This document shows, piece by piece, positions 14,527 through 48,521 of a stretch of DNA of 64,000 bases; positions within the stretch are counted from its first letter, which is position 1; every line of letters begins with the position of its first letter. Source of the DNA: a phage. The translations under genes and the position numbers were made by a program. The stretch is taken from sequence record PX880103.1, one strand, 5' to 3'. The notes below the pieces were generated by a model, which worked only from the letters and a program-made list of their open reading frames with translations, did not search any database and had not been told where the DNA came from.

Positions 14527-15073
14527 ATAAAAAATCCAAACTAGGAGAATCGTCTACAACACTTTTCTTTTCAGCCCCCGGTGTTCTATAGGTTGATTCT
14601 TCGTAATGCGTCATTTTATCGTAGATGTCTTGAATAAAAGTTTCATCTACTAACGCAACCATATCGTCGTCACGGCTGTCATAGACATTGTGAACGAAGT
14701 AACTATATTTCTTTGCAACTTCCTTACGTTCTTTTTTAATACGTTGGACGAATGCATTAAAACAAGCTTGAGTTATATACGCATGTGGGTTTTTATATTT
14801 CGTTTCATCAAAATTGTGAAGCCCCTTAATAGAAGCTTCTATACCATCTGCAATCATTTCTTGTTTCCAAGACTGGGTGTATCCTGAAAAGTTGAAACGT
14901 TTAGATAAGCCTTCTGCAATAAGCATAATGGCTAATCCGATAGTATCATTCTGACGAACTACTTTATTTGGGTCTTTATTATTTGCTAATTCTGTTTTCC
15001 AATCAATAATAGCTTGTAAAAGCTCTTTATTGTTTACGTAATTATATTTAGGCTTAGTTTCTGACATTTTCAC
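14510..15073 (-). CDS. 55: Late-transcription sigma factor
   Basis: 187 aa, matches T4 gp55 size and sequence as remembered. Confidence 0.9.
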
Positions 15074-15149
15074 CTCTTAGCTCAATTCATAGATCTATTA
15101 TATCATAATATTTGAAGATCTATCTTAAAGCACAGAGGATGAATCAATT

Positions 15150-15365
15150 TCAAGCATTCATCAGCTTAGCTGCTCCAAGAGCTGCATCTAGTGAATCAAA
15201 TTGGTCAACATATTCAATCAATTCGCCGTAATTAGCATATAACCACCATTGGCTAAATTCATACTCAAGGATGAATCCGTTTCCTTCAATTTGAGTTAAA
15301 CCAATGCCATTTGTATTTACTTCATATCCAGCAAGACGTAAATCGTTAATAAGAGCTTCGTTCAT
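15150..15365 (-). CDS. Hypothetical protein (55.1-like position)
   Basis: 71 aa ORF. Confidence 0.45.
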   Translation of the reverse strand: MNEALINDLRLAGYEVNTNGIGLTQIEGNGFILEYEFSQWWLYANYGELIEYVDQFDSLDAALGAAKLMNA

Positions 15366-15367
15366 AA

Positions 15368-15694
15368 TTATACCTTAGTAATTTTCAGGTCTGCAAATTT
15401 TTTCTTGCGTTGATTTTTCATGCGACGAATAGTTTTATCGGAAATTTCATGCTTTTGATAAGCTTTAGATTCTACACCAAAAGCTTTAACATCAAATTCT
15501 GACAAGATATATTGAACCAGCAATTCACGGACAGTATTGCGTCCAATCTTCTGATCATTCTGTTTCATCATCTGATGAAGCTCTTTTTCCCATTTATCCA
15601 AAATTTGAGGAGTTACAATATCGCCTTTTTCTAACAAAGAAACTACTTTATCATATGCGTAAGAATTGATGGCGTTTTTAATTTGAATAGTCAT
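15368..15694 (-). CDS. Hypothetical protein (55.2-like position)
   Basis: 108 aa ORF. Confidence 0.5.
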   Translation of the reverse strand: MTIQIKNAINSYAYDKVVSLLEKGDIVTPQILDKWEKELHQMMKQNDQKIGRNTVRELLVQYILSEFDVKAFGVESKAYQKHEISDKTIRRMKNQRKKKFADLKITKV

Positions 15695-15947: not shown

Positions 15948-16082
15948 TTAAATTTCCCACCAATTGCCATTTTCATCAATAAATTTAATCCAGTCATTTA
16001 CTGACCACTTAGTTGTATCGCCTTTTGGAGTAACATTTAAAGTGTATAACCCTTGTTTAAAAAGCATTCGTTTAATATTCAT
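15948..16082 (-). CDS. Hypothetical small protein
   Basis: Start moved to internal ATG preceded by GAGGAA SD; longer track version overlaps the upstream gene. Confidence 0.3.
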   Translation of the reverse strand: MNIKRMLFKQGLYTLNVTPKGDTTKWSVNDWIKFIDENGNWWEI

Positions 16083-16089
16083 ATTTTCC

Positions 16090-16383
16090 TCAGCTGTAAC
16101 GATAACACTCGTTTGATTTACGTTTAGCAACTCGTTGAGAAGTATTATAATCAAAATCATCGTCAATGTAAACTGATTTTTTCAACTTTCTTACTTCACC
16201 GCGTAATTGACGATTTAGCTCATCTTTAACTTCTGAATCAATGCCTTTCATTCTACGCCATTTATCTGAGCGAAAAATGTTTTCAACCATATCTTTATGA
16301 CTTACCCCATCAGGAGCTTTACGCTTTCCGAAATAGTCATAATCACGCACTTTTAAGTCTTTACGACGATACGTTTTACCCAT
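16090..16383 (-). CDS. Hypothetical basic protein
   Basis: Start moved to internal Met (MGKTYRRK); Lys/Arg rich. Confidence 0.4.
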   Translation of the reverse strand: MGKTYRRKDLKVRDYDYFGKRKAPDGVSHKDMVENIFRSDKWRRMKGIDSEVKDELNRQLRGEVRKLKKSVYIDDDFDYNTSQRVAKRKSNECYRYS

Positions 16384-16580
16384 GGAGTTTAATTTCCTTA
16401 GCAACTGAACTAAATACAGCACGATCACAAATCATACGTTTGTTCCATTTAATCACAGTATAATGAACATCTAGATCATCGACTGCTGTAACAATAACGA
16501 TATGTCCGTTAACACGATAATACTGGTCAATTTTAATCTCTTTATCAACCATATCAATTCCTCAAAGGTAATTCATATGT

Positions 16581-16614
16581 TAATAATACCATAGTTTGAA
16601 CTTGTTGTAAACAA
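16581..16614 (-). promoter_or_regulatory. Early promoter
   Basis: Minus strand CACAAAGTTGTTTACA ... GGTATTATTA. Confidence 0.55.
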
Positions 16615-16680
16615 CTTTGTGAAAAATATTTTAGGGAATGATAAGAAAGGAACGATAGCTTAGAATGGTAATATACAGAA

Positions 16681-16706
16681 TGCGAGAAAGAAAGGCCCAG
16701 AGGGCC
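16681..16706 (-). terminator. Hairpin with U-rich tail after nrdH
   Basis: Minus strand GGCCCUCUGGGCC then UUUCUUUCUC. Confidence 0.4.
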
Positions 16707-16710
16707 CGTC

Positions 16711-17019
16711 TTAATCTTCTATGATATCTCTATCATATCCAAGTGAAATGAGAGTTTCTTTGAAGTGTTTAATGTTCTTTTGTCTAGAATCATTAATGAA
16801 AATGACTGGATAACGAATGTTAAGAGATGTGAATCCAGCGCGTTTAGCAAGAGATACAATCAGCGGACGATCATACTCAATCTTACCATTATTTGTAAGA
16901 ACTTTATAGAAAGTAAAAGGAGCATTGAGCTCCTTTAGAAGTTTTGTAACTGATTGACATCCAGGACAACGACCTACTTCATCTGGAATTCCATAGACTT
17001 CAATCTTATTTTGTTTCAC
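16711..17019 (-). CDS. nrdH: Glutaredoxin-like protein NrdH
   Basis: 102 aa with CPGC redox motif; position upstream of 55. Confidence 0.7.
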   Translation of the reverse strand: MKQNKIEVYGIPDEVGRCPGCQSVTKLLKELNAPFTFYKVLTNNGKIEYDRPLIVSLAKRAGFTSLNIRYPVIFINDSRQKNIKHFKETLISLGYDRDIIED

Positions 17020-17021
17020 AA

Positions 17022-17234
17022 CTATTCCTTACTAAGAGCAGCATTCAACTTGTTAGTAATTTTATCCAGACGCTCATTGAACTCGCTAGAAGATAAACCC
17101 TTTTCTGGAGAAATCAAACTAATCACGAAAAATATAGCAATAAAAGGAATAAGGAAAATAGCTCCAACTGCCATAAACAGAAAGAATGTTACAGTTGTAA
17201 GAAAATCAGCTAAACCTTTACGAAATTTATACAT
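17022..17234 (-). CDS. Small membrane protein
   Basis: 70 aa with one long hydrophobic segment. Confidence 0.4.
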   Translation of the reverse strand: MYKFRKGLADFLTTVTFFLFMAVGAIFLIPFIAIFFVISLISPEKGLSSSEFNERLDKITNKLNAALSKE

Positions 17235-17352: not shown

Positions 17353-17823
17353 TTAATCATGTTTCCACACCCCATCGGTATTTGACCAAAGTCGCTGATT
17401 ATCTGATCCTCGCCACAGCTTTTTAGTCGGAAGATTTTTCTCATACTTCCCATCAATAATAACATCAACATATTTAAGCATTTCTAGTTGTTTAATATCT
17501 TCAAACTTATATCCTGTCCACAACCAAATGCTTTTATTGGGATAAAGATTTTTTACTGTTTGAACAATGCAATGAATAACATCTCGGTTATCAGGATAGA
17601 GAGGGTCTCCTCCAGTTATAGTTAATCCTTCTATATAATCATTATCCAAACATTCAATTAATTGTTCTAGTGTTTCACCGGTGAATGGAATACCATTTCT
17701 AGCATTCCATGTTGATTTATTATAACACCCTTCGCATTTATGCAAACAACCTGTAACGAAAAGAACGACCCTGCAACCAGGGCCATTCACAAAATCGCAA
17801 GGATAAAATCTATCATAATTCAT
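17353..17823 (-). CDS. nrdG: Anaerobic ribonucleotide reductase activating protein (radical SAM)
   Basis: 156 aa; cysteine-cluster CLHKCEGC near N-terminus; overlaps nrdD stop. Confidence 0.85.
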   Translation of the reverse strand: MNYDRFYPCDFVNGPGCRVVLFVTGCLHKCEGCYNKSTWNARNGIPFTGETLEQLIECLDNDYIEGLTITGGDPLYPDNRDVIHCIVQTVKNLYPNKSIWLWTGYKFEDIKQLEMLKYVDVIIDGKYEKNLPTKKLWRGSDNQRLWSNTDGVWKHD

Positions 17824-20757: not shown

Positions 20758-21078
20758 TTATAGCGTAATCCATTCTCGTACTGTCTGAGTTACTACACGT
20801 TCTCGAAGCTCAACCAGTTCAACGGTAGGAACTGCATAATACCAGTCAGAATGATAAGAACCTGAGCGAGATTCATTTACAGCCACATGTACATTATGTT
20901 TTGGACTAAAATAAACACACTGACGATATTGGCATTTACCATCTTGCACCCAGTCTTCTATTTCGATAGGTTTAAGATAATCGGAAAAATCGAAATCATA
21001 GTTTTCTGAAAATGCATCGTGGTCTTCGATGATTTCGCTCAGAACTGCATCAACATCTAATTTATTTTCAATAGTCAT
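20758..21078 (-). CDS. Hypothetical protein
   Basis: 106 aa acidic ORF. Confidence 0.45.
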   Translation of the reverse strand: MTIENKLDVDAVLSEIIEDHDAFSENYDFDFSDYLKPIEIEDWVQDGKCQYRQCVYFSPKHNVHVAVNESRSGSYHSDWYYAVPTVELVELRERVVTQTVREWITL

Positions 21079-21985: not shown

Positions 21986-22283
21986 CTTCTCGGTCAAATC
22001 GGTGTTTACAATGGCGGCATTTATAACGAAGATTACTAGTCTGCCAATGGACCAATTGCACCTGTTCAGTTCCACATTCAGGGCAATTAGGAACGTTTTT
22101 AGAAGCACGTTCGCGACGTTCAACCATAACCATTACAGAATCCCAATTAACAGGAGGGCTATAATCATCACAACCATGAATCTTTCCACGCATTTCCAGA
22201 TCGTCTTCTTCACCAGCCATAATAATTTTAATTAGACTAGAATTACTTGAAGCTGCAATGTCTTCTAATAAACGCTTTTTCAT
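21969..22283 (-). CDS. Zinc-ribbon protein
   Basis: 104 aa with CPECG...CRHC pattern. Confidence 0.45.
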
Positions 22284-23206
22284 TTCAATACCTCAATAGC
22301 ATTACGTAAACCATTTGCTTTGGCGGTTAAAGCCTTGAGAACTTTAGTATGCTCTTCAATTTGTTTTTCAACTTCAACCAAACGAGCATTGAGATATTCG
22401 CGTTCTTCTTTCATAGTATCATTCCCATGATTGGATTTTGGCGTAGGTTTAAATTCACTAGGGTCCTTTAACTTAATAACAAATTTAGTTTCAAACAGTG
22501 AAAGACCATAATTCGTATTATCATCAAAGGATTTGACTACATCCATATCAGATAATAACACGCGCAAATTATAAGCCAAAGAACTAATAGTTTCATTGTG
22601 TTTATTAGCTTCGCGGGGTTTCATATACGGAAGATTTTTATATATCTCGTGCGGAGCGCAAATTATAATTGACAATTCAAATTGCCCATTCTGGGACGAT
22701 GGAGTGAATTTAGCTGTAACCCAGTCTTTTACATTCACATTAATAGTACGGTTATCACCATGACAAAACAGTCTACGAGAATGCTTAAAAAGCATATTCA
22801 CGTTATTATTGAATTCGTGTGAAAATTCACTAGCAAATTTTTCTTTACTATCTTTAGAAAACCATTCTTCTAAATAAGTTCTTTTCACGTCGTTAATAAT
22901 ATTAAATGTAACAACACTAGCATTTGATACATTAGTCTCAATGTAGCTTGGATACATAAATTTTTTAACATTATTAACAGCTATCACAGAAGATAGTAAT
23001 CGGGAACGTTTGAACCACTCGAGCAAAGAACCAAGAGAATGTGAATACGCATTTTGTGTATCTTTACAAATATGGTTTTCCCATCCAATATAGTCTAAAA
23101 AATCACGAAGAATATTATTGATTACTGCTCTGTGTCCTATCTGATAATTACGATGTTTAGTAATAAGACTGTCAAAATAATCAATATAATGTTTACGAGT
23201 TTTCAT
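22280..23206 (-). CDS. Paralog family member A (N-terminal globular region, C-terminal coiled coil)
   Basis: 308 aa; heptad-like C-terminus [31 protein letters not shown]; same architecture as the next three ORFs. Confidence 0.55.
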   Translation of the reverse strand: MKTRKHYIDYFDSLITKHRNYQIGHRAVINNILRDFLDYIGWENHICKDTQNAYSHSLGSLLEWFKRSRLLSSVIAVNNVKKFMYPSYIETNVSNASVVTFNIINDVKRTYLEEWFSKDSKEKFASEFSHEFNNNVNMLFKHSRRLFCHGDNRTINVNVKDWVTAKFTPSSQNGQFELSIIICAPHEIYKNLPYMKPREANKHNETISSLAYNLRVLLSDMDVVKSFDDNTNYGLSLFETKFVIKLKDPSEFKPTPKSNHGNDTMKEEREYLNARLVEVEKQIEEHTKVLKALTAKANGLRNAIEVLK

Positions 23207-37421: not shown

Positions 37422-37751
37422 TCAATTAGAAAATAAATTTATCCAAGATTGTTCTTTAATTAAAAATGGCTCAGAATCATATGCCATTAAACTTTGGGTG
37501 ATTAGTCCTTTAAAAGGCCCATCAATAAATTCCATGGTAAAATATGGAATTTTATTCATTAACTTTGCATTAGGAGCAGTACACAAAACTCTACATCCTT
37601 TGAATACACCTTTTTGTAATTTGTATTGCTTAGGATAAAATTCGCTCAAGACGTTGTTATTTGCCAAAATTTCAAAATGATTCACCAATTTATTTTTAAT
37701 AGTTTTTGGCGAAAAATAAAGATATTCGAAAAGTTGTGTGTCTGTCATCAT
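37422..37751 (-). CDS. Hypothetical protein
   Basis: 109 aa ORF. Confidence 0.45.
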   Translation of the reverse strand: MMTDTQLFEYLYFSPKTIKNKLVNHFEILANNNVLSEFYPKQYKLQKGVFKGCRVLCTAPNAKLMNKIPYFTMEFIDGPFKGLITQSLMAYDSEPFLIKEQSWINLFSN

Positions 37752-38335
37752 TGCATTCCAATTACGAAAAACTGTGGACGAGTAATACCATCAATGCAAC
37801 ATTTACTGTTGCAGCAGTGTTGTACAGTTTCAATATGAATATCGTAAATTTTATCCATATCAGGAGATTTAACAGGCTCATCGATTATATACAAAATCCG
37901 CGAAAGCGATAAACCTCTGAACTTGCTACCTCTATTACCAACAAAACTACGGACAGAATCAGTAAATAAACGGAATCGAATATCATCGCTAGAATAACGA
38001 GAAAATTCTTTTTTAATGTTGCCAGCAGAAATTTTAGCATAAGCTGAAGTATTAGAAAGAACAATAACTGTTCCGCCGTCATACAGCCAATTAGCAGCGA
38101 AGTTAGTCACAGCAGTTGATTTACCAGATTGACGTCCACCATCTAGTCGAAGTGTGCAATACTGCTTAAGTAAGTCTTCAAATGGCGGGATATAATCATT
38201 TTTACAAATTTCTTCTACTCTAGCATCAGAATGGTGTGTAAAAGCATTCATCAGGGATAGATAAGGACCAGTTAAAAATGTTCTCATTTTGTTCTCTCTA
38301 AATTTGGGCCATTCCGTGGCGCATGAATTGTCCAT
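37748..38335 (-). CDS. Small P-loop NTPase
   Basis: Walker A GGRQSGKST and Walker B ILYIIDEP; true start may be the internal Met at 38287. Confidence 0.5.
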   Translation of the reverse strand: MDNSCATEWPKFRENKMRTFLTGPYLSLMNAFTHHSDARVEEICKNDYIPPFEDLLKQYCTLRLDGGRQSGKSTAVTNFAANWLYDGGTVIVLSNTSAYAKISAGNIKKEFSRYSSDDIRFRLFTDSVRSFVGNRGSKFRGLSLSRILYIIDEPVKSPDMDKIYDIHIETVQHCCNSKCCIDGITRPQFFVIGMQ

Positions 38336-38506
38336 TTCTGTATTTACCCATTACCGCACTTGGGCTCGACCTTATTACAGGTTGGCGGGAATCCCTCACA
38401 GAATCATGAGGTCCAGCTTGTTCCCATGTTATTTGAATGTAAATATTTTTGCCTTAATACTTATACCAGTGTGGCTTCATTAAAATTTTTTCATCGAGTC
38501 ATTTTA
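38336..38506 (-). pseudogene. Possible remnant of the denV (endonuclease V) locus: promoter, SD and a 3-codon ORF (MTR-stop) followed by non-coding, relatively GC-rich sequence
   Basis: Minus strand reads GGAGAGG-N5-ATGACTCGATGA just downstream of an early promoter; T4 endonuclease V begins MTR; no ORF of 60 aa or more in 38336..38559. Confidence 0.3.
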
Positions 38507-38523
38507 CCTCTCCAAGTAATTAT

Positions 38524-38559
38524 GAATATACTATCACAATTTTAGGAGAAAGTAAACTG
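38524..38559 (-). promoter_or_regulatory. Early promoter
   Basis: Minus strand AACAGTTTACTTTCTCCTAAAATTGTGATAGTATATTC, directly after ipII stop. Confidence 0.55.
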
Positions 38560-38862
38560 TTATTTACCTTTAATTACTTTAGCTGCTTCGATAGCCGCTT
38601 GCTGAAGGTCATCCATAGACATACCGAATTTAGAAGCAAAGTTATCAATTTTCTTTTCGACAGCATTCAAAGGCTTGGCCTGTTTACCTTCATTAGCGCC
38701 AGGAAGAGCGAGAATACGCTCTTTGTCAATATAAAGGCTTACAAGTTTCTTACGGTCTTTATCGGACAAATCATGAAATGAATGGGCCTTTTTATTTATA
38801 GCGGCTTCTAATTTACCTGCACTCACTCGCGCTTCAGTAATAAATTCTTGATATGTTTTCAT
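38560..38862 (-). CDS. ipII: Internal protein (IPII-like) with capsid-targeting leader
   Basis: Starts MKTYQEFITEA (cleavable capsid targeting sequence); 100 aa; position downstream of ipIII. Confidence 0.6.
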   Translation of the reverse strand: MKTYQEFITEARVSAGKLEAAINKKAHSFHDLSDKDRKKLVSLYIDKERILALPGANEGKQAKPLNAVEKKIDNFASKFGMSMDDLQQAAIEAAKVIKGK

Positions 38863-38903: not shown

Positions 38904-39482
38904 TTAATTACCACGGGCTGCATTAGCAACGGCATAAGCGTACTGAACATTAGCGTCCTTAAACGTACCTTTAGAGGTATCTATTTCTGCCTTAAAGCCG
39001 CCTTTAGCCATAACATCGGCAAATTCTTTACGGAAAGCCATTGCATCAAGACCTTTCCATGATGATTTGTGCTTGGCGAATTCAAGACCAGCGTAGTTGA
39101 CAGCCTTAGCTAATTTATTATCAATGACCCATTTACCGGCTTTAGGCACAAACTTCGGACCTTTTTGTTTAGAGAACAGTTTTAAATTCCAGCGACGAAG
39201 ATCACTGTCGGCTTTAACAAAAGCTGCGTCTAAGTTACTAGCAACAACATCTTCAATATGAGCAAATTTAAGTCCGTCAACTTCAATATTTAAATCGGTA
39301 CGCCAGCGAAGTCCTTCCCAAGCGAAAGCTTTAAAATCGGAAGCTTTTGTAGCTAAGTATCGTTCAATAGGGGCTGTTTTAGGGTCAAAGCCGTTTCCAC
39401 CACGATAGTTCCACTCATCTTTATTAATGCCTTTGGCCTTTACTACAGAAGCTTCAGCGATAAATTCTTTATACGTTTTCAT
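38904..39482 (-). CDS. ipIII: Internal protein (IPIII-like) with capsid-targeting leader
   Basis: Starts MKTYKEFIAEA; 192 aa. Confidence 0.6.
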   Translation of the reverse strand: MKTYKEFIAEASVVKAKGINKDEWNYRGGNGFDPKTAPIERYLATKASDFKAFAWEGLRWRTDLNIEVDGLKFAHIEDVVASNLDAAFVKADSDLRRWNLKLFSKQKGPKFVPKAGKWVIDNKLAKAVNYAGLEFAKHKSSWKGLDAMAFRKEFADVMAKGGFKAEIDTSKGTFKDANVQYAYAVANAARGN

Positions 39483-39498: not shown

Positions 39499-39816
39499 TT
39501 ATTCTTTAGGGAAGTTTTTAGAATATGCATCATAAAGCTTATTTCCAATACGGCGGAAAACTCTAGCCGCAAAACGATTTTCTGGGTTTTTAATCATGAT
39601 TTGCATCATATAAGTACCCGCGTCAGAAAGAGCTTCTTCATAGTACCCGTTAATTTCTTTAAGAGTCCTACGTTTACCACCAGGACCATCAACAGTGATT
39701 TTCCATTTACCCGTAGAAGTGCGACTTGGCGGCTCAACTTGTTCAATCCAGATATAACCGCCTTCTACACGTTGTCCTGCAGCAGATTCTGCAATAAATT
39801 CTTGATATGTTTTCAT
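39499..39816 (-). CDS. Additional internal protein with capsid-targeting leader
   Basis: Starts MKTYQEFIAES; 105 aa; lies between e and ipIII. Confidence 0.55.
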   Translation of the reverse strand: MKTYQEFIAESAAGQRVEGGYIWIEQVEPPSRTSTGKWKITVDGPGGKRRTLKEINGYYEEALSDAGTYMMQIMIKNPENRFAARVFRRIGNKLYDAYSKNFPKE

Positions 39817-39866
39817 GTGTTTCCTTTAAATATTTTAATTAGTAATTTATCTATTCAAGTAACTGT

Positions 39867-39902
39867 GAATATACTATCACAATTCCAAGAGAAAGTAAAC
39901 AG
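39867..39902 (-). promoter_or_regulatory. Early promoter
   Basis: Near-identical to the 38524..38559 copy; upstream of the extra ip gene. Confidence 0.55.
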
Positions 39903-39904
39903 CT

Positions 39905-40873
<969 letters not shown>

Positions 40874-40892
<19 letters not shown>

Positions 40893-42228: not shown

Positions 42229-42822
42229 TTATTTCAGAGAATTAATGTATTCCTGAACATCGGCAGAGGTAGTTTCAACCCCAGAAATATTACCATTAAA
42301 GGTTTCAACTCGAGCAAGAGTATCTTCAATATCAACCTTAGTCAGCGCTGCAATTTCAACTACATCATCGGCAGTACTAATTCCAAGGGCATTTGCTGCA
42401 CGAGTTTCACGGATATATTCCAATTTAACTGCAAGTTCTTGGCGAGCATCATCTAACTCAACTACTTTCTTAGCGATTTCAATTCGCATTTCAGCATACC
42501 CATCAGCTTTAGTAGTCAGCTGTTCAGCTGTTCGACGATATAGCAAACCGAGTTTAGCATGCATTGTTACATCTTGACCTTCGGAAAGAAGCTTGCGAAT
42601 TTCACGCTCTTTTGATTCGGCCTGTTTATTCTTTTCAATAACAAGTTCACGAATACGTTTTTCTTCATTAATAGATTTAATAGAAGCAGTTTTTAGATCT
42701 TTAATTTTATCAAGTAGTTTTGCTGCCGCAGCAGTATACTGTTCTTCAACAGATAGATTTTTAGCCATAGCAGAACCGAGTTTAGTGCGAATAAACTCAA
42801 CAATTTTCTTCAGTGTGTTCAT
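42229..42822 (-). CDS. Coiled-coil protein
   Basis: 197 aa, largely helical heptad-like sequence. Confidence 0.45.
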
Positions 42823-43110
42823 AGTATTTCCTTAGGTTAATTAAGATTTAAAATCCATGAGAGTATTATACTCCGGATAGTTTGTAAACTATTTCAACAT
42901 CGCCTTTTGCTGCTTTATAACCTTCAGCCCAAGATACAACCGAGTTTTTATCTGAAGATTCAAATTCTGGCATTGGGCTTTCTCCAATGTTCACGCAGTA
43001 TGTTTCTTCATTTTCGTCGAACCAAATAATTAAAGTAGTCATTTATTTCTCCGTTTCTGTATTTGTTTTGATAAGTCTATAATAACACCGTCCTTGGTGT
43101 TTGTACACAA

Positions 43111-43386
43111 TTATTTCATATTATTGAAATATTCTTCTGCGATTTCGTCATTATCATGGTAAACTTTAGAAGACAGTTTAACATAACCTTCTGCCGTGAA
43201 CATATTAATCACAACCTTTACAGTATACCACTGACCATCTTCATTACCCATTACTGCGTAAGTTTCAAACATCGGATGGTCAGGACCGATAACTTTAATA
43301 TCATTCACTGTACGACCAAAATCTTCTGAAACGCATTTCATAAAGAAGTTGAACAGTTCGCCGTAATTATCCATTTTATTCTCCAA
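43111..43386 (-). CDS. Hypothetical protein
   Basis: 91 aa ORF downstream of an early promoter. Confidence 0.45.
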   Translation of the reverse strand: MENKMDNYGELFNFFMKCVSEDFGRTVNDIKVIGPDHPMFETYAVMGNEDGQWYTVKVVINMFTAEGYVKLSSKVYHDNDEIAEEYFNNMK

Positions 43387-43408
43387 GTTGTTTTCTGTAT
43401 CAGTAGTT

Positions 43409-43449
43409 GATAGTTTTATAGTACCATGGAAGAACAGGGATGTAAACAG
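43409..43449 (-). promoter_or_regulatory. Early promoter
   Basis: Minus strand CTGTTTACATCCCTGTTCTTCCATGGTACTATAAAACT. Confidence 0.6.
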
Positions 43450-43567
43450 TTTTGTGAAAAATTTTTAGGGAATTCTAGGGGCAGGGAGGGGCAATTAAAA
43501 GATAGGATAATATATTATAAAGGGTATAAACTAAATGATGCCTAGAGAGGTCTGGAAAGGCCTAGAT

Positions 43568-43598
43568 ACCAAAAATCCCTATCATTTAGATAGGGATT
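43568..43598 (-). terminator. Rho-independent terminator after the leader-bearing gene 43604..44167
   Basis: Minus strand AAUCCCUAUCUAAAUGAUAGGGAUU then UUUUGG. Confidence 0.55.
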
Positions 43599-43603
43599 TA
43601 AAA

Positions 43604-44167
43604 TTATTTACCTAGTTTAGTTATTATAGCTTCGGCAGCAGCTTTTAGCTTAGATGCAGTGTTAATACGATTTTTAATTTCAGTATAAGCATCGCCAAGA
43701 ACATCAAGGCTATCAGAATAAACACTTACACTATTGCGTTCGCTATTTGAAATAGAACCTTTAGTTTTACGATCAAAATCAGTGTACACATCTTGAAGAT
43801 CGCGGGCTGCCTTCTTTGCATCATCTAACGCATCAAGAGCTTTATTCAAAGCATTGACATATTTTTTAGTATCAAACATATTCTTAGAAATTTTGACAGG
43901 TGCGCGTTCAGGAGTAGCTAAGGCAGATTTAGGAACCTGAGCGCCTGATGCTAATTTCTTAGAAATTTTGAAAAATGCTTTATTGAATTTATTTTCTTGA
44001 CTCATCGTAAAAGAACTATTATCAATGTTATACATTTCAATAGCTTTAGCTTTCCACTTAAGAAAATCGCCACGGTCTTTTGGGTCCAATTGGAAGAATA
44101 CTTTAGTAAGATCTGCTTCAGATGGTAATTTTGCTGCTTCGGTTAAAAATTCGGCATAGGTTTTCAT
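43604..44167 (-). CDS. Candidate internal protein with capsid-targeting-like leader
   Basis: Starts MKTYAEFLTEA, same leader pattern as the ip genes; 187 aa; followed by a terminator. Confidence 0.5.
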   Translation of the reverse strand: MKTYAEFLTEAAKLPSEADLTKVFFQLDPKDRGDFLKWKAKAIEMYNIDNSSFTMSQENKFNKAFFKISKKLASGAQVPKSALATPERAPVKISKNMFDTKKYVNALNKALDALDDAKKAARDLQDVYTDFDRKTKGSISNSERNSVSVYSDSLDVLGDAYTEIKNRINTASKLKAAAEAIITKLGK

Positions 44168-44249
44168 TTAAAATCCTTGAAATAATTTATCGGTTGGTTA
44201 TTAATTATTTATTACTTTGTTATTATCCGTAACAGCATTCTCTATGTGA

Positions 44250-44287
44250 TTCAAACTAAAAAGCCCCAACCTTTCGGTCGGGGCTAA
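44250..44287 (-). terminator. Rho-independent terminator closing the tRNA/stable-RNA cluster
   Basis: Minus strand AGCCCCGACCGAAAGGUUGGGGCU followed by UUUUU. Confidence 0.6.
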
Positions 44288-44290
44288 GCC

Positions 44291-44601
44291 TTGCGGCAAC
44301 CTTGTCGGGGTTCCACCTGCTAAGGCAAGTGTTTGTACGAAACGCCGGGATTCGAACCCGGTTATTAAGCAGTTGACGCTACTCAATATTTTTAAAAGGC
44401 CATATCTCGACCATATCCGAACGTTCCGTCAAAAACGCTACTCGGCTTACGGCAAAGATATTTCCTCGAATCGATAATTCTGTGCGCCGTTTCTGCTGTG
44501 ATGTAAGGGGACATTAACAGATCGTAAAGATTTGATAATGTCAGTCCTTACTCAGGGAACATCAGTCCGACGACTTACCGGTAGCGACCCGGTTTCTTGT
44601 T
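44291..44601 (-). ncRNA. Structured non-coding RNA region downstream of tRNA-Arg, with a tRNA-like 3' domain (possible small stable RNAs)
   Basis: No credible ORF; canonical T-arm CCGGGUUCGAAUCCCGG at 44345..44361 with a 7 bp acceptor-like pairing (44338..44344 with 44422..44428); D and anticodon arms could not be folded. Confidence 0.35.
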
Positions 44602-44677
44602 TGGTCGAGGCAGTAGGGATCGAACCTACGACCTAGGACTTAGAAGGTCCTTGCTCTTCCTTCTGAGCTATGCCTCG
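44602..44677 (-). tRNA. tRNA-Arg (anticodon UCU)
   Basis: Hand fold: 7 bp acceptor CGAGGCA/UGCCUCG, anticodon loop CUUCUAA, T-loop UUCGAUC, encoded CCA; 76 nt. Confidence 0.85.
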
Positions 44678-44681
44678 GATT

Positions 44682-44756
44682 TGGCGGACGTGATAGGATT
44701 CGAACCTATAACCAATCGCTTAACAGGCGATCGCTCTGCCATTGAGCTACACATCC
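44682..44756 (-). tRNA. tRNA-Asn (anticodon GUU)
   Basis: Hand fold: acceptor GGAUGUG/CACGUCC, anticodon stem AUCGC/GCGAU with loop CUGUUAA, T-loop UUCGAAU, encoded CCA; 75 nt. Confidence 0.75.
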
Positions 44757-44760
44757 AAAT

Positions 44761-44847
44761 TGGTGGGGAGTGATGGAGTCGAACCACCCGAGTCGCAATG
44801 ACAATGGATTTACAGTCCACACCGCTACCTCTACGGGATAACTCCCC
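44761..44847 (-). tRNA. tRNA-Tyr (anticodon GUA), class II with long variable arm
   Basis: Acceptor GGGGAGU/ACUCCCC, anticodon loop CUGUAAA, variable arm resembles bacterial tRNA-Tyr, encoded CCA; 87 nt. Confidence 0.75.
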
Positions 44848-44856
44848 AAATTAATT

Positions 44857-44931
44857 TGGTGGCCCTGGGTGGAATTGAACCACCATCTGGCGATTATGAG
44901 TCGCTTGCTTGAACCTTCCAGCTACAGGGCC
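44857..44931 (-). tRNA. tRNA with anticodon CAU (Met, or Ile if lysidine-modified)
   Basis: Acceptor GGCCCUG/CAGGGCC, anticodon loop CUCAUAA, T-loop UUCAAUU, encoded CCA; 75 nt. Confidence 0.8.
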
Positions 44932-44939
44932 AAATTTTC

Positions 44940-45425
44940 TTATTTTATGTAATATTTATTTAAAAACTTTCTAGCTTGAGTATGGCTAACATTTATAGCG
45001 TTTGCATAATTTTTAATAAAACCTCGTTCATCCATATTAAAATTTTCTAATATTTTTAATCGTCTAGTTATCTCATCTTGACTTAAGGTACTTGCATTAT
45101 TTTTAGAAATTTTTTCTAAGGACTGTGCCGAGTGTTTTCGACCATTAAAATTAAAATTTTTAGATTTTGGAGGAAATCTAGCATTTAATCTCGCATCTTT
45201 TGTATTTTGATTATTAGTTGCGCAATATATGTTATTTAATGAATATGGTCCTTTATCGCCGAAACGGCACATGCAGTATTCATGACCCTTTCTTCCACGC
45301 TTATCATAATTTCCCGTTGATTTCCACCAATGCAACCATTCATCAAAAGTTAAATTCCATTCAATGTTTCTACGTATAGCAGAATTCCGCTGAGAAATAT
45401 ATTTTGCATAATCTTCTTTCATCAC
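44940..45425 (-). CDS. Putative HNH-family homing endonuclease-like protein embedded in the tRNA cluster
   Basis: 161 aa; GHEYCMCRFGDKGPYSLNNIYCATNNQN cysteine/Asn-rich nuclease-like core plus C-terminal helix-turn-helix-like tail; free-standing between tRNA sub-clusters. Confidence 0.45.
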   Translation of the reverse strand: MMKEDYAKYISQRNSAIRRNIEWNLTFDEWLHWWKSTGNYDKRGRKGHEYCMCRFGDKGPYSLNNIYCATNNQNTKDARLNARFPPKSKNFNFNGRKHSAQSLEKISKNNASTLSQDEITRRLKILENFNMDERGFIKNYANAINVSHTQARKFLNKYYIK

Positions 45426-45469
45426 AAATTTCTCTACTTATTCAATACACTGAGCTAAATCAGCAAAAC

Positions 45470-45559
45470 TGGCGGAGGCGATAGGATTTGAACCTATGAG
45501 TCGCCGGAGCGACTGCCGGTTTTCAAGACCGGTGCATTAAACCACTCTGCCACGCCTCC
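45470..45559 (-). tRNA. tRNA-Ser (anticodon UGA), class II
   Basis: Acceptor GGAGGCG/CGCCUCC, anticodon stem CCGGU/ACCGG with loop CUUGAAA, long variable arm, encoded CCA; 90 nt. Confidence 0.85.
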
Positions 45560-45561
45560 AG

Positions 45562-45635
45562 TCTCCGTGGCAGGATTTGAACCTACGACATTCTGCTCCC
45601 AAAGCAGACGCTCTACCAAACTGAGCTACACGGAG
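45562..45635 (-). tRNA. tRNA-Pro (anticodon UGG), CCA not encoded
   Basis: Acceptor CUCCGUG/CACGGAG, anticodon stem UCUGC/GCAGA with loop UUUGGGA, T-loop UUCAAAU; 74 nt. Confidence 0.8.
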
Positions 45636-45645
45636 TAAATTAAAT

Positions 45646-45719
<74 letters not shown>

Positions 45720-45724
45720 AAATT

Positions 45725-45811
45725 TGGTGCGAGAAGTGGGACTCGAACCCACAAGGAAATCATTCCGCAGCATTTTAAGTGCTGTGCCTTTACCAATTTG
45801 ACCATTCTCGC
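45725..45811 (-). tRNA. tRNA-Leu (anticodon UAA), class II
   Basis: Sequence GCGAGAAUGGUCAAAUUGGUAAAGGCACAGCACUUAAAAUGCUG...CACUUCUCGCACCA; matches T4 tRNA-Leu as remembered; 87 nt. Confidence 0.85.
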
Positions 45812-45817
45812 GCTATA

Positions 45818-46450
45818 TTATTTATTACGTGAAAAAGACTGTTCTATCAATTCTGGACACTTTCGTTCTATCCATTTTCTAGCTTTTTGTGGGCTTATAC
45901 CTATTATTTTAGCAGCTTTACTAACCCATCCAAATTTAGAATAATCGATTTTAACTAATTCTTCGTAAATTTCATCAGTTAAAATCTTTTCATTAATATT
46001 TACCAGTAAATGATATAATTTATTATCATTAGCAATTTTAATGAATCTTTTATAGTTTCCGCCTTTACTTAAACCTAATGAAGTAATTGCAGATGATATA
46101 GTAGCCGAATTTAATAGCGCGTTTAAAATTTCTTCATCACTAACATTATAACGCTTTTTATTATTTTTAATATTTTTACCAGCAAAAGTATCAGTTTGCG
46201 AATGGCAGTTTGGACATAATAATCTTAAATTAGATTTAAGATGATTTTTGTTATTTCCATCAATATGGTCTAATTGCAGAACAATATGCTTATTTTGCCA
46301 TTTTGAAATTTTACAAATTGCACACTCATATGGAAAAATATTTTCTTTTATTATTTTGTCTTTCAGCTTTCCTGTACTAAAATTTGGATGTTTTCCTTCA
46401 AAAATTTCAGCTAATTTAGTATCCATAATATAATTCCCAATTATTAACAA
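45818..46450 (-). CDS. HNH homing endonuclease
   Basis: CAICK...LQLDHIDGNNKNHLKSNLRLLCPNCH: classic zinc-bound HNH motif; lies immediately upstream of tRNA-Leu. Confidence 0.6.
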   Translation of the reverse strand: MLIIGNYIMDTKLAEIFEGKHPNFSTGKLKDKIIKENIFPYECAICKISKWQNKHIVLQLDHIDGNNKNHLKSNLRLLCPNCHSQTDTFAGKNIKNNKKRYNVSDEEILNALLNSATISSAITSLGLSKGGNYKRFIKIANDNKLYHLLVNINEKILTDEIYEELVKIDYSKFGWVSKAAKIIGISPQKARKWIERKCPELIEQSFSRNK

Positions 46451-46536
46451 AGGCTCTCAAACAAGAACCCTTGATGATAGAGGGTATTAATCAGTGCGGT
46501 ATGAGTTAATAATAACAAATAATTCTTAAAGCATAT

Positions 46537-46824
46537 TTACCATTTATGATGATACGTATTTACGATACATTCAAAACCCAAAGGATTCTTGAAAATATCA
46601 TATTCAAGAGGACCTTTTTCTGTTTCAATAAAGAAATCAAAATTTACTGTATTAAATTTACGGTCTTCCTTCACTAATTTAACCTGAGAAGATGAACGGT
46701 CAATGTAAACCTTTTCAACTTCAAAACATGTTAAAATGCCATAATCATCAATCAAGGCTTTAGCTGCTTCTTGATCATATTTATATCCATTTTCAATGGA
46801 TGATACTTTAGCATAAAGAATCAT
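46537..46824 (-). CDS. Hypothetical protein
   Basis: 95 aa ORF. Confidence 0.4.
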   Translation of the reverse strand: MILYAKVSSIENGYKYDQEAAKALIDDYGILTCFEVEKVYIDRSSSQVKLVKEDRKFNTVNFDFFIETEKGPLEYDIFKNPLGFECIVNTYHHKW

Positions 46825-46826
46825 TA

Positions 46827-47237
46827 TCAGCCTCTATCAACAATAGCATGAGTATGGGCATTTACGATTTGCCACCAGTCGAAACGATTGGAACCATAAT
46901 CTGGTTTATTTTCATTTTCTTTAATGATATCACGCAGTTTATCTTCTGTTTCAGCATACGCAATTAAATCATCATATCCACCACAAGGATAATAATTATC
47001 ACCTGCGAATAAAAGAAAATTTACCTTAGATGGATTTACGTAATAATGGTCTTTAGGATATTTAGTTCCTCTCCAATCAGTTACTTCAACATAACGATAA
47101 GAAAATCCATTTTTACTTTCAATCCAACTCCACGCTTCAAAAGGAGTATTAAAAACTTTATCAGGTATTAAATTACCTTCAAAATGAGAAGGATTTGCAT
47201 AATCCCCGGCATAAACATAATATTCGTTAATACTCAT
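46827..47237 (-). CDS. Hypothetical protein
   Basis: 136 aa ORF, aromatic-rich. Confidence 0.45.
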   Translation of the reverse strand: MSINEYYVYAGDYANPSHFEGNLIPDKVFNTPFEAWSWIESKNGFSYRYVEVTDWRGTKYPKDHYYVNPSKVNFLLFAGDNYYPCGGYDDLIAYAETEDKLRDIIKENENKPDYGSNRFDWWQIVNAHTHAIVDRG

Positions 47238-47423
47238 TTATTCACCTTTAGAAATTTTATCCATAACGATAGCGATTAAACCAATTAAAAATGCTACTAC
47301 AAGTGAAAACACATTTTCTGCTGTAGTTAATAATCCGCATATAAATCCAACAAACATTGAAAAACTAAAAGCGGAAGCAGAAATTGCAATAGCAACATTT
47401 CGAATTAATTCACAGCGTTTCAT
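47238..47423 (-). CDS. Small membrane protein
   Basis: 61 aa, two hydrophobic helices; downstream of an early promoter. Confidence 0.35.
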   Translation of the reverse strand: MKRCELIRNVAIAISASAFSFSMFVGFICGLLTTAENVFSLVVAFLIGLIAIVMDKISKGE

Positions 47424-47448
47424 TTTATTCTCCTCAGTAGTTGATAGG

Positions 47449-47483
47449 GTAATAGTATCACAACTAAAACCCTATGTAAACAA
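47449..47483 (-). promoter_or_regulatory. Early promoter with inverted repeat flanking the -10
   Basis: -35 GTTTACA; -10 region GATACTATTA bracketed by ATAGGG...CCCTAT. Confidence 0.5.
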
Positions 47484-47493
47484 CTTTGTGAAA

Positions 47494-47751
47494 TTATTTT
47501 AAATCTTCTAATCGTTTCTTCATCTTAGAACCGTTCTTAGCGATTTCGCCTGCATCAGAGCATAATGCTAAAAGTGCTTTAACTTTAGTTTGGTCTCCTT
47601 TAAAAGATGAAGGATCAACAGCAGCAGCAAGTTCTTTAATACGAGAGAAAAGACGCTCAGCTTCAGCTAAAGCCATTCCAAGCTTTACTTCCATACCGTG
47701 GGAAGATTCAGTGATAGTAGTTTTTGTAGCAAACTCTTTGAAAGTTTTCAT
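47494..47751 (-). CDS. Small protein with capsid-targeting-like leader at the ipI locus
   Basis: Starts MKTFKEFATK; 85 aa; immediately upstream of 57B. Confidence 0.5.
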   Translation of the reverse strand: MKTFKEFATKTTITESSHGMEVKLGMALAEAERLFSRIKELAAAVDPSSFKGDQTKVKALLALCSDAGEIAKNGSKMKKRLEDLK

Positions 47752-47778
47752 TTTTATTTTCCTAATTAATTCTGATGA

Positions 47779-47814
47779 GATAATAGTATCACTACCTCAT
47801 CAGTATGTAAACAA
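47779..47814 (-). promoter_or_regulatory. Early promoter with inverted repeat flanking the -10
   Basis: -35 GTTTACA; -10 region bracketed by CTGATGAG...CTCATCAG. Confidence 0.5.
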
Positions 47815-47824
47815 CTTTGTGAAA

Positions 47825-48521
<697 letters not shown>

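Follow-up and report, generated by a model that had tools for sequence, protein, structure and literature searches.

The internal proteins of T4-like bacteriophages enter the host cell together with the DNA, ahead of phage gene expression. In T4 their genes occupy two loci, at least ten internal proteins (Ip) have been reported in related phages, and Ip1, Ip2 and Ip3 each inhibit a different restriction enzyme of the GmrSD type (type IV), the target of IPIII being the GmrSD of ECOR17 (PMC12373910). For five further GmrSD systems active on T-even phages no inhibitor was found among the ten ip genes tested, and since Ip4-10 gave no reproducible inhibition of GmrSD, an internal-protein leader is in itself no guarantee of such an activity (PMC12373910). 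The leader has been dissected in IPIII: residues 1-10 are enough for packaging, residues 4 and 7 serve targeting and residues 8 and 10 processing, the prohead protease gp21 cleaving after L/I-X-E (PMC9026906). Here we describe a gene carrying this kind of leader in a stretch of phage DNA of 64,000 nucleotides (sequence record PX880103.1), hereafter the window. Its open reading frame (ORF) of 187 amino acids, at 43604..44167 on the minus strand, which is the orientation of all genes in that region, probably represents a new internal-protein family at a third internal-protein locus, and packaging and cleavage of its product are predicted from the sequence.

The protein (187 amino acids) and T4 IPIII (193) both have a 10-residue leader, with Y4, F7, E10 and, at position 8, I or L; in both, [LI]xE occurs only once, the mature form is basic (the isoelectric point, pI, of IPIII is about 9.6) and the gene is a non-essential accessory one. 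However, there is no similarity beyond the leader, the gene is found at e.8/rnaC instead of e/denV, it has another 5′ untranslated region (UTR), and it is preceded by a late-promoter box, whereas an early promoter stands upstream of T4 ipIII. T4 IPI/IPI* and the polymorphic Ip4-Ip10 of the ipI and ipII/III loci (Repoila et al., 1994) follow the same principle, being unrelated small proteins with the leader alone in common, whose presence varies between close relatives and which are thought to be injected anti-restriction factors; in contrast to them, the family to which the 187-residue protein belongs, PHROG 2280, occupies a third locus, is conserved there across genera and, in the records sampled, counts no named Ip. 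Finally, T4 Alt, gp67 and gp68 likewise enter the head by way of the prohead core and undergo gp21 cleavage after L/I-X-E, but none of them has the MKTY.EF leader, and they are enzymes, as Alt is, or core components that are cut into fragments; in the protein described here a single cleavage site is predicted, and no catalytic domain is recognisable. The route that it uses is the known one of capsid targeting and gp21 processing, and a known mechanism is extended without a new one being introduced.

The Leader and the Predicted Mature Protein

The protein begins MKTYAEFLTEAAKLPSEA, and its first ten codons (44138..44167, minus strand), MKTYAEFLTE, constitute a predicted capsid-targeting sequence. 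Y4, F7, L8 and E10 correspond to every position mapped by experiment: Y4 and F7 are the targeting residues, and L8-T9-E10 before Ala forms the gp21 processing motif. The observation made in an earlier note on this DNA, that MKTYAEFLTEA follows the ip-type pattern, is thus borne out, both at these residues and in a scan with MK[TS][YF].[EQ]F. The pattern is not readily produced by chance: in the 1503 11-mers of the window that start with ATG and contain no stop, the full motif MK[TS][YF].[EQ]F[LI].E has an expectation of 0.0001; for the four functionally mapped positions alone the expectation is 0.09, and the four ORFs that match are the ip-type ORFs of the window.

The [LI]xE site in the leader is the only one of the whole protein, so that the protease would leave the mature form whole, as it does with IpII and IpIII. 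Cleavage after Glu10 (L-T-E/A) would expose the predicted neo-N-terminal peptide AAKLPSEADLTK and leave a mature protein of 177 amino acids (43607..44137, minus strand) with a mass of 19.6 kDa and a pI of 9.5; the four remaining leader proteins of the window fall at 9.2-9.7. Small, basic and encoded by a gene that is missing from T4 and T2, it has the profile of a dispensable and polymorphic internal protein.

An AlphaFold2 model built from a 10-sequence alignment is of low to moderate confidence (predicted local distance difference test, pLDDT, 65; predicted template modelling score, pTM, 0.40). It is all-helical, with a predicted N-terminal helical region at residues 17-73, a putative disordered linker rich in Pro, Ala and Lys at 75-92, and a modelled C-terminal helical hairpin at 101-186, which is better defined. 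In Shigella phage CT01 (L016, 701-1189) an in-frame deletion of 75 nucleotides (nt) has removed 25 residues (67-91) and left a protein of 162 amino acids; the deletion lies between two copies of TCAAAATTTCTAAGAA, which lie in the window at 43956-43971 and 43881-43896. As it takes most of the predicted disordered linker, this part of the molecule is dispensable.

A Real Gene with Putative Late Signals of Its Own

The ORF starts with ATG, ends with a TAA stop codon (43604..43606) and is preceded by a Shine-Dalgarno sequence, AAGGA, at 44174..44178, 6 nt before the ATG. Comparison with its orthologues in JB75 and at two further loci (L004 and L005) revealed 21-23 nt differences, which amount to 19-20 synonymous and 1-2 non-synonymous codon changes, and an identity of at least 95% is kept in all but one of the 165 genomes that carry it. 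The ORF is under purifying selection and is a real gene.

A T4-type late-promoter box, AATAAATA, is located at 44206..44213 on the minus strand and ends 38 nt upstream of the ATG. It is the A(-13) variant of the perfect box, TATAAATA; among the 50 T4 late promoters listed, 32 are perfect and 9 carry the A(-13) substitution (PMC2988020). The minus strand of the window contains seven copies of TATAAATA and four of AATAAATA, and at these frequencies it is unlikely, at an estimate of roughly 1-2%, that a late box would fall by chance within the 90 nt upstream of a given gene. In CT01 the counterpart of the box reads GATAAATA. A sigma-70 early promoter was considered for the gene and rejected, as the only match was a weak site (ATCACA-N17-GATAAT, 9 of 12 positions) of the kind expected at background frequency.

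Two hairpins delimit this unit. The upstream one (44262..44285, -21.7 kcal/mol, z = -3.9) is a terminator that ends the stable-RNA unit formed by the tRNA genes, rnaD and rnaC. The downstream one (43573..43599, AAATCCCTATC-TAAAT-GATAGGGATTT, -15.7 kcal/mol, z = -3.5), also on the minus strand, is followed by TT-GG on the coding strand; none of 200 shuffled sequences folds as well, and the JB75 record annotates the site as a rho-independent terminator, in agreement with the earlier attribution of a terminator of its own to this ORF. Since the strong upstream hairpin closes the stable-RNA unit just before the gene, the latter appears, as far as its signals indicate, to be shielded from early transcription and to be activated at the time of prohead construction.

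The PHROG 2280 Family

The 187-residue protein matches phrog_2280, a family of "unknown function", with E = 3e-53, and the same family matches the alleles of 187, 157, 153 and 205 amino acids with E-values of 1e-52 to 1e-60. The 157-residue allele, starting with MKSYAQFLNEA, is represented by JB75_0134, RB32ORF133c and fD1 g140; the 153-residue allele starts with MKTYAQFLMTEA, and that of 205 residues, orf129 of Dhakavirus IME08, with MKTYNEFLNESVLTEA. More distant members are found in a Klebsiella Jiaodavirus (MKFKEFLAEA), in Yersinia phage MHG19 (MLNFNEFLAES) and in Tegunavirus (MLEYSEFLKEL and MLQYNEFLKES). Profiles run against 5.8 billion sequences and against 1.84 billion cluster representatives retrieved 25-26 members, nearly all of 100-205 amino acids, of the T4-like phage type and with a leader-like N-terminus, together with a few fragments; they brought up no bacterial or functionally annotated relative. 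A single-sequence search of the 5.8 billion proteins recovered near-identical sequences only, and one apparent member, P0039, a repeat protein of 1080 amino acids, was discarded as a spurious match.

In the database records sampled these genes have gone without a name. All 60 sampled rows of the 165 carrier records bear the label "hypothetical protein" (e.g., RB14ncORF136c and Shfl2p135), as do the sampled records of the related alleles, and no named Ip is among them. Moreover, the mature part resembled no named Ip, either in the PHROG assignment, which is not to an internal-protein PHROG, or in a comparison with IPIII by hhalign, a result that includes no individual comparison with Ip4-Ip10. 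In the profile comparison with T4 IPIII the leader only was aligned, over 16 columns.

The bodies of the members are 13-26% identical to the 187-residue protein, and it is against this background that the conservation of the leader stands out. No columns but F7 and E10 are invariant in the 10-sequence alignment, E6 and L8 belonging to the seven that are nearly so; in an alignment of 19 sequences M1 and E10 are invariant and F7 is conserved at 95%. Over 159 distant pairs, identity is 52% in the leader columns and 25% outside them. The retention of the leader while the bodies diverge implies selection on the leader itself, at the residues of packaging and cleavage. Many members, furthermore, carry two successive [LIV]xE motifs (FLNE-SVLTE-A), recalling the long leader of T4 IPI.

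Putative late signals precede other members as well. A perfect box, TATAAATA, lies 28-40 nt before the ATG in all the 157-, 153- and 205-residue alleles inspected (JB75, RB32, teqdroes, fD1, an IMG/VR contig and IME08, to which KP1_122 of the Klebsiella Jiaodavirus was added), a few bases after the upstream terminator. In Tegunavirus, gp154 and gp153 form a tandem pair with one TATAAATA, which stands before the upstream gene. These two PHROG 2280-type paralogues, gp154 (MLQYNEFLKES) and gp153 (MLEYSEFLKEL), were observed at 15965-17080 of fHe-Yen9-01 (L019), where additional small leader ORFs, hypothetical in the annotation, are present at 17644-17802, 20819-21037 and 22056-22292.

A Third Locus Built of Cassettes

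The gene had been described as lying outside the ip cluster. The locus is indeed a separate one, yet it is no isolated oddity: Tequatrovirus, Dhakavirus, Tegunavirus and Jiaodavirus have in common a conserved third leader-ORF locus, at which the 187-residue gene is one of the alleles. No description of leader ORFs at e.8/rnaC was found in the literature searched, in which older T4 work was thinly covered, so that an earlier description is possible.

In T4 this site is empty, the terminator hairpin of the stable RNAs being directly followed by GGTATCTA and running into the upstream region of e.8 (...GGTTGGGGCTTTTT joined to GGTATCTAAGCC...). In the window a cassette is inserted exactly at the T4-type T-run and ends in a hairpin and T-run of its own (...GATAGGGATTTTT joined to GGTATCTAGGCC...), the junction between GGGATTTTT and GGTATCTAGG corresponding to the empty T4 site between GGGGCTTTTT and GGTATCTAAG. 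The T-run of the hairpin at 44262-44285 is thus the upstream boundary and insertion point of the cassette, and that of the hairpin at 43573-43599 its downstream boundary.

The number of cassettes differs between phages. T4, T2 and RB10 have none; the window and a minority of the carriers have the 187-residue gene only; RB32, teqdroes and fD1 have the 157-residue gene only; and JB75, like most of the best matches to a 1-kb query around the ORF, has both. When both are present, as in JB75 (L002, 3864-4445), L004, L005 and many others, the 157-residue gene forms a second cassette upstream of the 187-residue gene, flanked by a direct repeat of the terminator hairpin, TTAGCCCCGACCGAAAGGTTGGGGCTTTTTAG. 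The record of RB32 (L012) mentions a "34 bp imperfect direct repeat" around RB32ORF133c, with no comment on function. According to the GenBank phage collection, from which the distribution was taken (a scan of IMG/VR for the terminator sequence gave six loci only), the 187-residue allele occurs in 165 phage records, and the 157-residue type and its relatives in 512, including Klebsiella and Yersinia phages.

Single-ORF modules between stem-loops, gained and lost between close relatives, are already known as PeSL (promoter-early stem-loop) cassettes (Arbiol 2010, Comeau 2014; PMC4122927). The present cassette resembles them without belonging among them, for the PeSL combination of stem-loop and sigma-70 early promoter is absent: a late TATAAATA box is found inside the cassette instead, and what is repeated is a genuine terminator, situated where the stable-RNA operon ends.

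Virion Evidence and a Proposed Mechanism

A paralogue of the 187-residue gene has been looked at from the side of the particle. In the virion proteome of Yersinia phage fD1, g140, which is the 157-residue allele at the third locus, was called particle-associated at the strict threshold of the authors, as was g129, a 157-residue "head protein" gene beside denV, in the classical position of the ip cluster, while the neighbours of g140, g138 and g139 (e.8), were not among the particle-associated proteins (PMC8309999). This detection lends weak support to packaging; the mature N-terminal peptides predicted from the sequence of g140 would be AVLNEASSTEIQAVAK or ASSTEIQAVAK. For phages with the 187-residue allele the literature yielded no proteomics, the fPS-65 paper containing none and the UFV13 paper four gel bands only.

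We consider it likely that the 187-residue protein is expressed late, packaged by means of its leader and active after injection. In this account the upstream hairpin would stop early and middle transcription of the tRNA/rnaC unit, and RNA polymerase with gp55 would transcribe the gene late from AATAAATA. The match at all mapped positions suggests that MKTYAEFLTE would then bind the protein to the scaffolding core while the prohead is being assembled, and gp21 would cleave after Glu10, so that the basic and helical mature protein would stay in the head with the DNA. Injected with the genome, it would act before phage gene expression, and by analogy with Ip1-3 its likeliest task would be to neutralise a host defence. 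At the level of the family, PHROG 2280 alleles would be exchanged as cassettes of promoter, leader ORF and terminator at the T-run of the terminator hairpin. The suggestion that the protein is a further candidate for packaging with an ip-type leader is in this way supported by the leader residues, the late box, the basic mature form, the conservation of the leader and the paralogue in fD1.

Several observations weigh against this account. The promoter box is a variant one, and the strength of variant late promoters in vivo is not known (PMC2988020). The fD1 data set is unspecific, since 113 of 277 phage proteins, DenV, NudE and lysozyme included, were called particle-associated, and 672 host proteins as well (PMC8309999). 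In Tegunavirus the leaders of the family, ML[EQ]Y.EFLKE, differ at positions 2-3 from those of its own annotated internal proteins, MK[TS]Y.EFI.E, and no clear co-variation of family leaders with annotated internal proteins was found from genus to genus. The mature part, in turn, has given no clue to function: a search of Pfam returned nothing above threshold and coiled-coil-type noise only (Cytochrome b562, 17.7 bits against a cut-off of 30), a search of NCBIfam gave no match, and Foldseek against the PDB, with the model of pLDDT 65, returned generic helical hairpins at E-values of 0.3 or worse, with no meaningful match. With no relative of known function detected for the mature part, the anti-defence role is proposed by analogy.

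Among other explanations, the main alternative as to function is that the leader does target the protein to the prohead core, where it would serve in head assembly or in DNA condensation, as an accessory core or charge-neutralising component, as has been suggested for IPIII. Mutants of IPIII assemble heads more slowly and form more polyheads (PMC9026906), lysines of internal proteins touch DNA phosphates (PMC3012670), and the family combines a basic pI with a Lys/Pro/Ala-rich linker, of which IME08 has a very long form (KPAKPAKAPVAKP...); retention at a single locus in several genera is, moreover, more conservation than is typical of a gene engaged in an arms race. Nevertheless, T4, T2 and most Tequatrovirus genomes do without the gene and show no obvious harm, the linker has been lost in frame in CT01, the alleles are extremely divergent (15-26% identity) and vary in copy number as genes of host interaction do, and all three T4 internal proteins tested are GmrSD inhibitors (PMC12373910); we hold a structural role to be improbable.

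The leader might also be vestigial, either inherited or acquired through recombination with an ip gene, on a protein that is expressed late but remains in the cytoplasm. Shuffling of the ip loci through their conserved leaders and 5′ sequences has been described (Repoila 1994, as reported in PMC4122927 and PMC12373910), and all the database records sampled call the protein hypothetical. A vestige would hardly be the most conserved segment of the protein across at least four genera, though, with the functionally mapped residues as the invariant ones, nor would its paralogue, fD1 g140, be expected in virions. The leader DNA, furthermore, is nearest to that of its own paralogue and not to the leaders of ipII and ipIII, which argues for old vertical inheritance, and the 5′ UTR shared within the ip cluster (TTTAAAGGAAACAY-ATG) is missing upstream of the ORF; we judge this explanation even less probable than a structural role. 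As to a chance open frame in an AT-rich spacer, a thought prompted by the purely mechanical listing of ORFs and by the small ORFs on the opposite strand, it is refuted by the substitution pattern (synonymous to non-synonymous about 10-20 to 1) and stands against the near-constancy of the frame among its 165 carriers, the full-length PHROG match and the possession of a Shine-Dalgarno sequence, promoter box and terminator, so that its probability is negligible.

Packaging and late expression being the preferred reading, what the injected protein would do is much less certain than the account as a whole; an anti-defence function is the best-supported guess, by analogy with Ip1-3. More tentatively, PHROG 2280 could be an unusually widespread packaged and injected family, hitherto overlooked, occupying a third locus of Tevenvirinae in late-promoter/leader-ORF/terminator cassettes, with each allele (187, 157, 153 and about 170-205 amino acids) directed against a different host defence. 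This wider proposal is rather doubtful; one of the GmrSD groups that act on T-even phages and had no Ip inhibitor in the work of Silas et al. would be an example of a possible target.

The finding would not surprise a specialist of T4, but it is useful and bears on the current search for injected anti-defence proteins. The sequenced T4-like phages in which this leader-bearing family occurs number several hundred and include many candidates for therapeutic use, and the catalogue of candidate injected anti-defence proteins is enlarged with a set of alleles for screening against orphan defence systems. The capsid-targeting tag can, in addition, be used as a search key beyond the two classical loci, and the locus illustrates clearly how a terminator hairpin can serve as the insertion site of gene cassettes.

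Other Leader-Bearing Frames in the Window

A scan from every ATG of the window found exactly five ORFs with MK[TS][YF].[EQ]F, which confirms the count of up to five candidate packaged proteins in the earlier note; four of them are named internal proteins, and the 187-residue protein is the only one from an unannotated family. All four are encoded on the minus strand. The IpII homologue (100 amino acids, 38560..38862) matches phrog_7857, "internal virion protein", and the IpIII homologue (192 amino acids, 38904..39482) matches phrog_5341, also "internal virion protein", with E = 2e-117. They are followed by an Ip10-like protein (105 amino acids, 39499..39816), 71-72% identical to Ip10 of SP18 and VR25 and called internal head protein in some records. 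The fourth is Ip5 (85 amino acids, MKTFKEFATKTTITES, 47494..47751), which matches phrog_3499, "internal head protein", with E = 1e-49, and is identical to a JB75 protein with the note "Ip5". As had been stated for this second leader ORF, it sits at the ipI locus, directly downstream of 57B, in the position of T4 ipI. Its leader reads MKTFKEFATKTTITE, with S after the cut, and is all that it has in common with T4 IPI, there being no similarity to mature IPI.

Compared with T4, the window has the Ip10-like gene in the place of ipIII and Ip5 in that of ipI. The first gene of the ip cluster and the gene at the ipI locus keep near-identical T4-type early promoters and 5′ UTRs, at 39817-39900 and 47752-47824, while the coding sequences downstream differ. 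This conservation of promoter and UTR with exchanged coding parts fits the exchange mediated by leader and UTR that was proposed by Repoila et al.

Further frames of this kind were noticed in IME08 (L018), where two unannotated leader ORFs on the minus strand, of 74 amino acids (14936-15160, MKTYQEFITEAKKHED...) and 69 amino acids (15239-15448, MKTYNEFLTEAMES...), lie between Ip9 and 57B. Counting orf107, ipII, orf129 and Ip9, a stretch of 26 kb of that genome holds six leader ORFs.

Genomic Neighbourhood

The window is a Tequatrovirus segment from a close relative of T4: 689 phage records match the 1-kb query around the ORF at 90-99% identity, mostly T4-like phages of Escherichia, Shigella and Yersinia. 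T4 genes, including rnaC and rnaD, were placed on it by BLAST against T4, which located e at 39905-40399, nudE at 40437-40891, e.6 at 42229-42822, e.8 at 43111-43374, rnaC at 44336-44474, rnaD at 44482-44597, trna.2 to trna.4 at 46537-47423 and 57B at 47825-48283. Eight tRNA genes occupy 44602-45811, the tRNA-Arg gene lying at 44602-44677, and a scan of 43000-48000 with Rfam gave tRNAs alone above threshold. Their set (Arg, Asn, Tyr, Met, Ser, Pro, Gly and Leu) is unlike that of T4. Given this mapping and the position of the tRNA-Arg gene, the 187-residue ORF stands between e.8 on one side and rnaC, rnaD and the tRNA cluster on the other, that is, between the e-distal genes and the tRNA genes, where it had been placed. 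The sigma-70-type early promoter of e.8 (TTTACA-N17-TACTAT with an upstream TG, 43418..43446, minus strand), which has a homologous sequence in T4, flanks the cassette and lies outside it.

The tRNA cluster is itself interrupted, at 44940-45425 and 45818-46450 on the minus strand, by two ORFs where T4 has segB, for which tblastn found no counterpart in the window. The ORF of 210 amino acids gave a sub-threshold HNH match (E = 0.006) with the pattern CxxC...HxDG..N...CxxCH, and that of 161 amino acids had no match in a Pfam search; both are probably homing endonucleases. In place of T4 e.7, to which tblastn detected no similarity in the window, there is an unrelated ORF of 58 amino acids at 42866-43042 (minus strand), of the type of fD1 g138 and RB14 ORF134. 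Lastly, denV appears to have been deleted at 38336-38559. At the denV site, downstream of the ipII homologue, the early promoter is followed by the frame ATG ACT CGA TGA, a remnant of about 20 C-terminal codons of T4 DenV survives at 38439-38498 with 70% identity, and a vs.8 homologue comes next, at 37748-38335.

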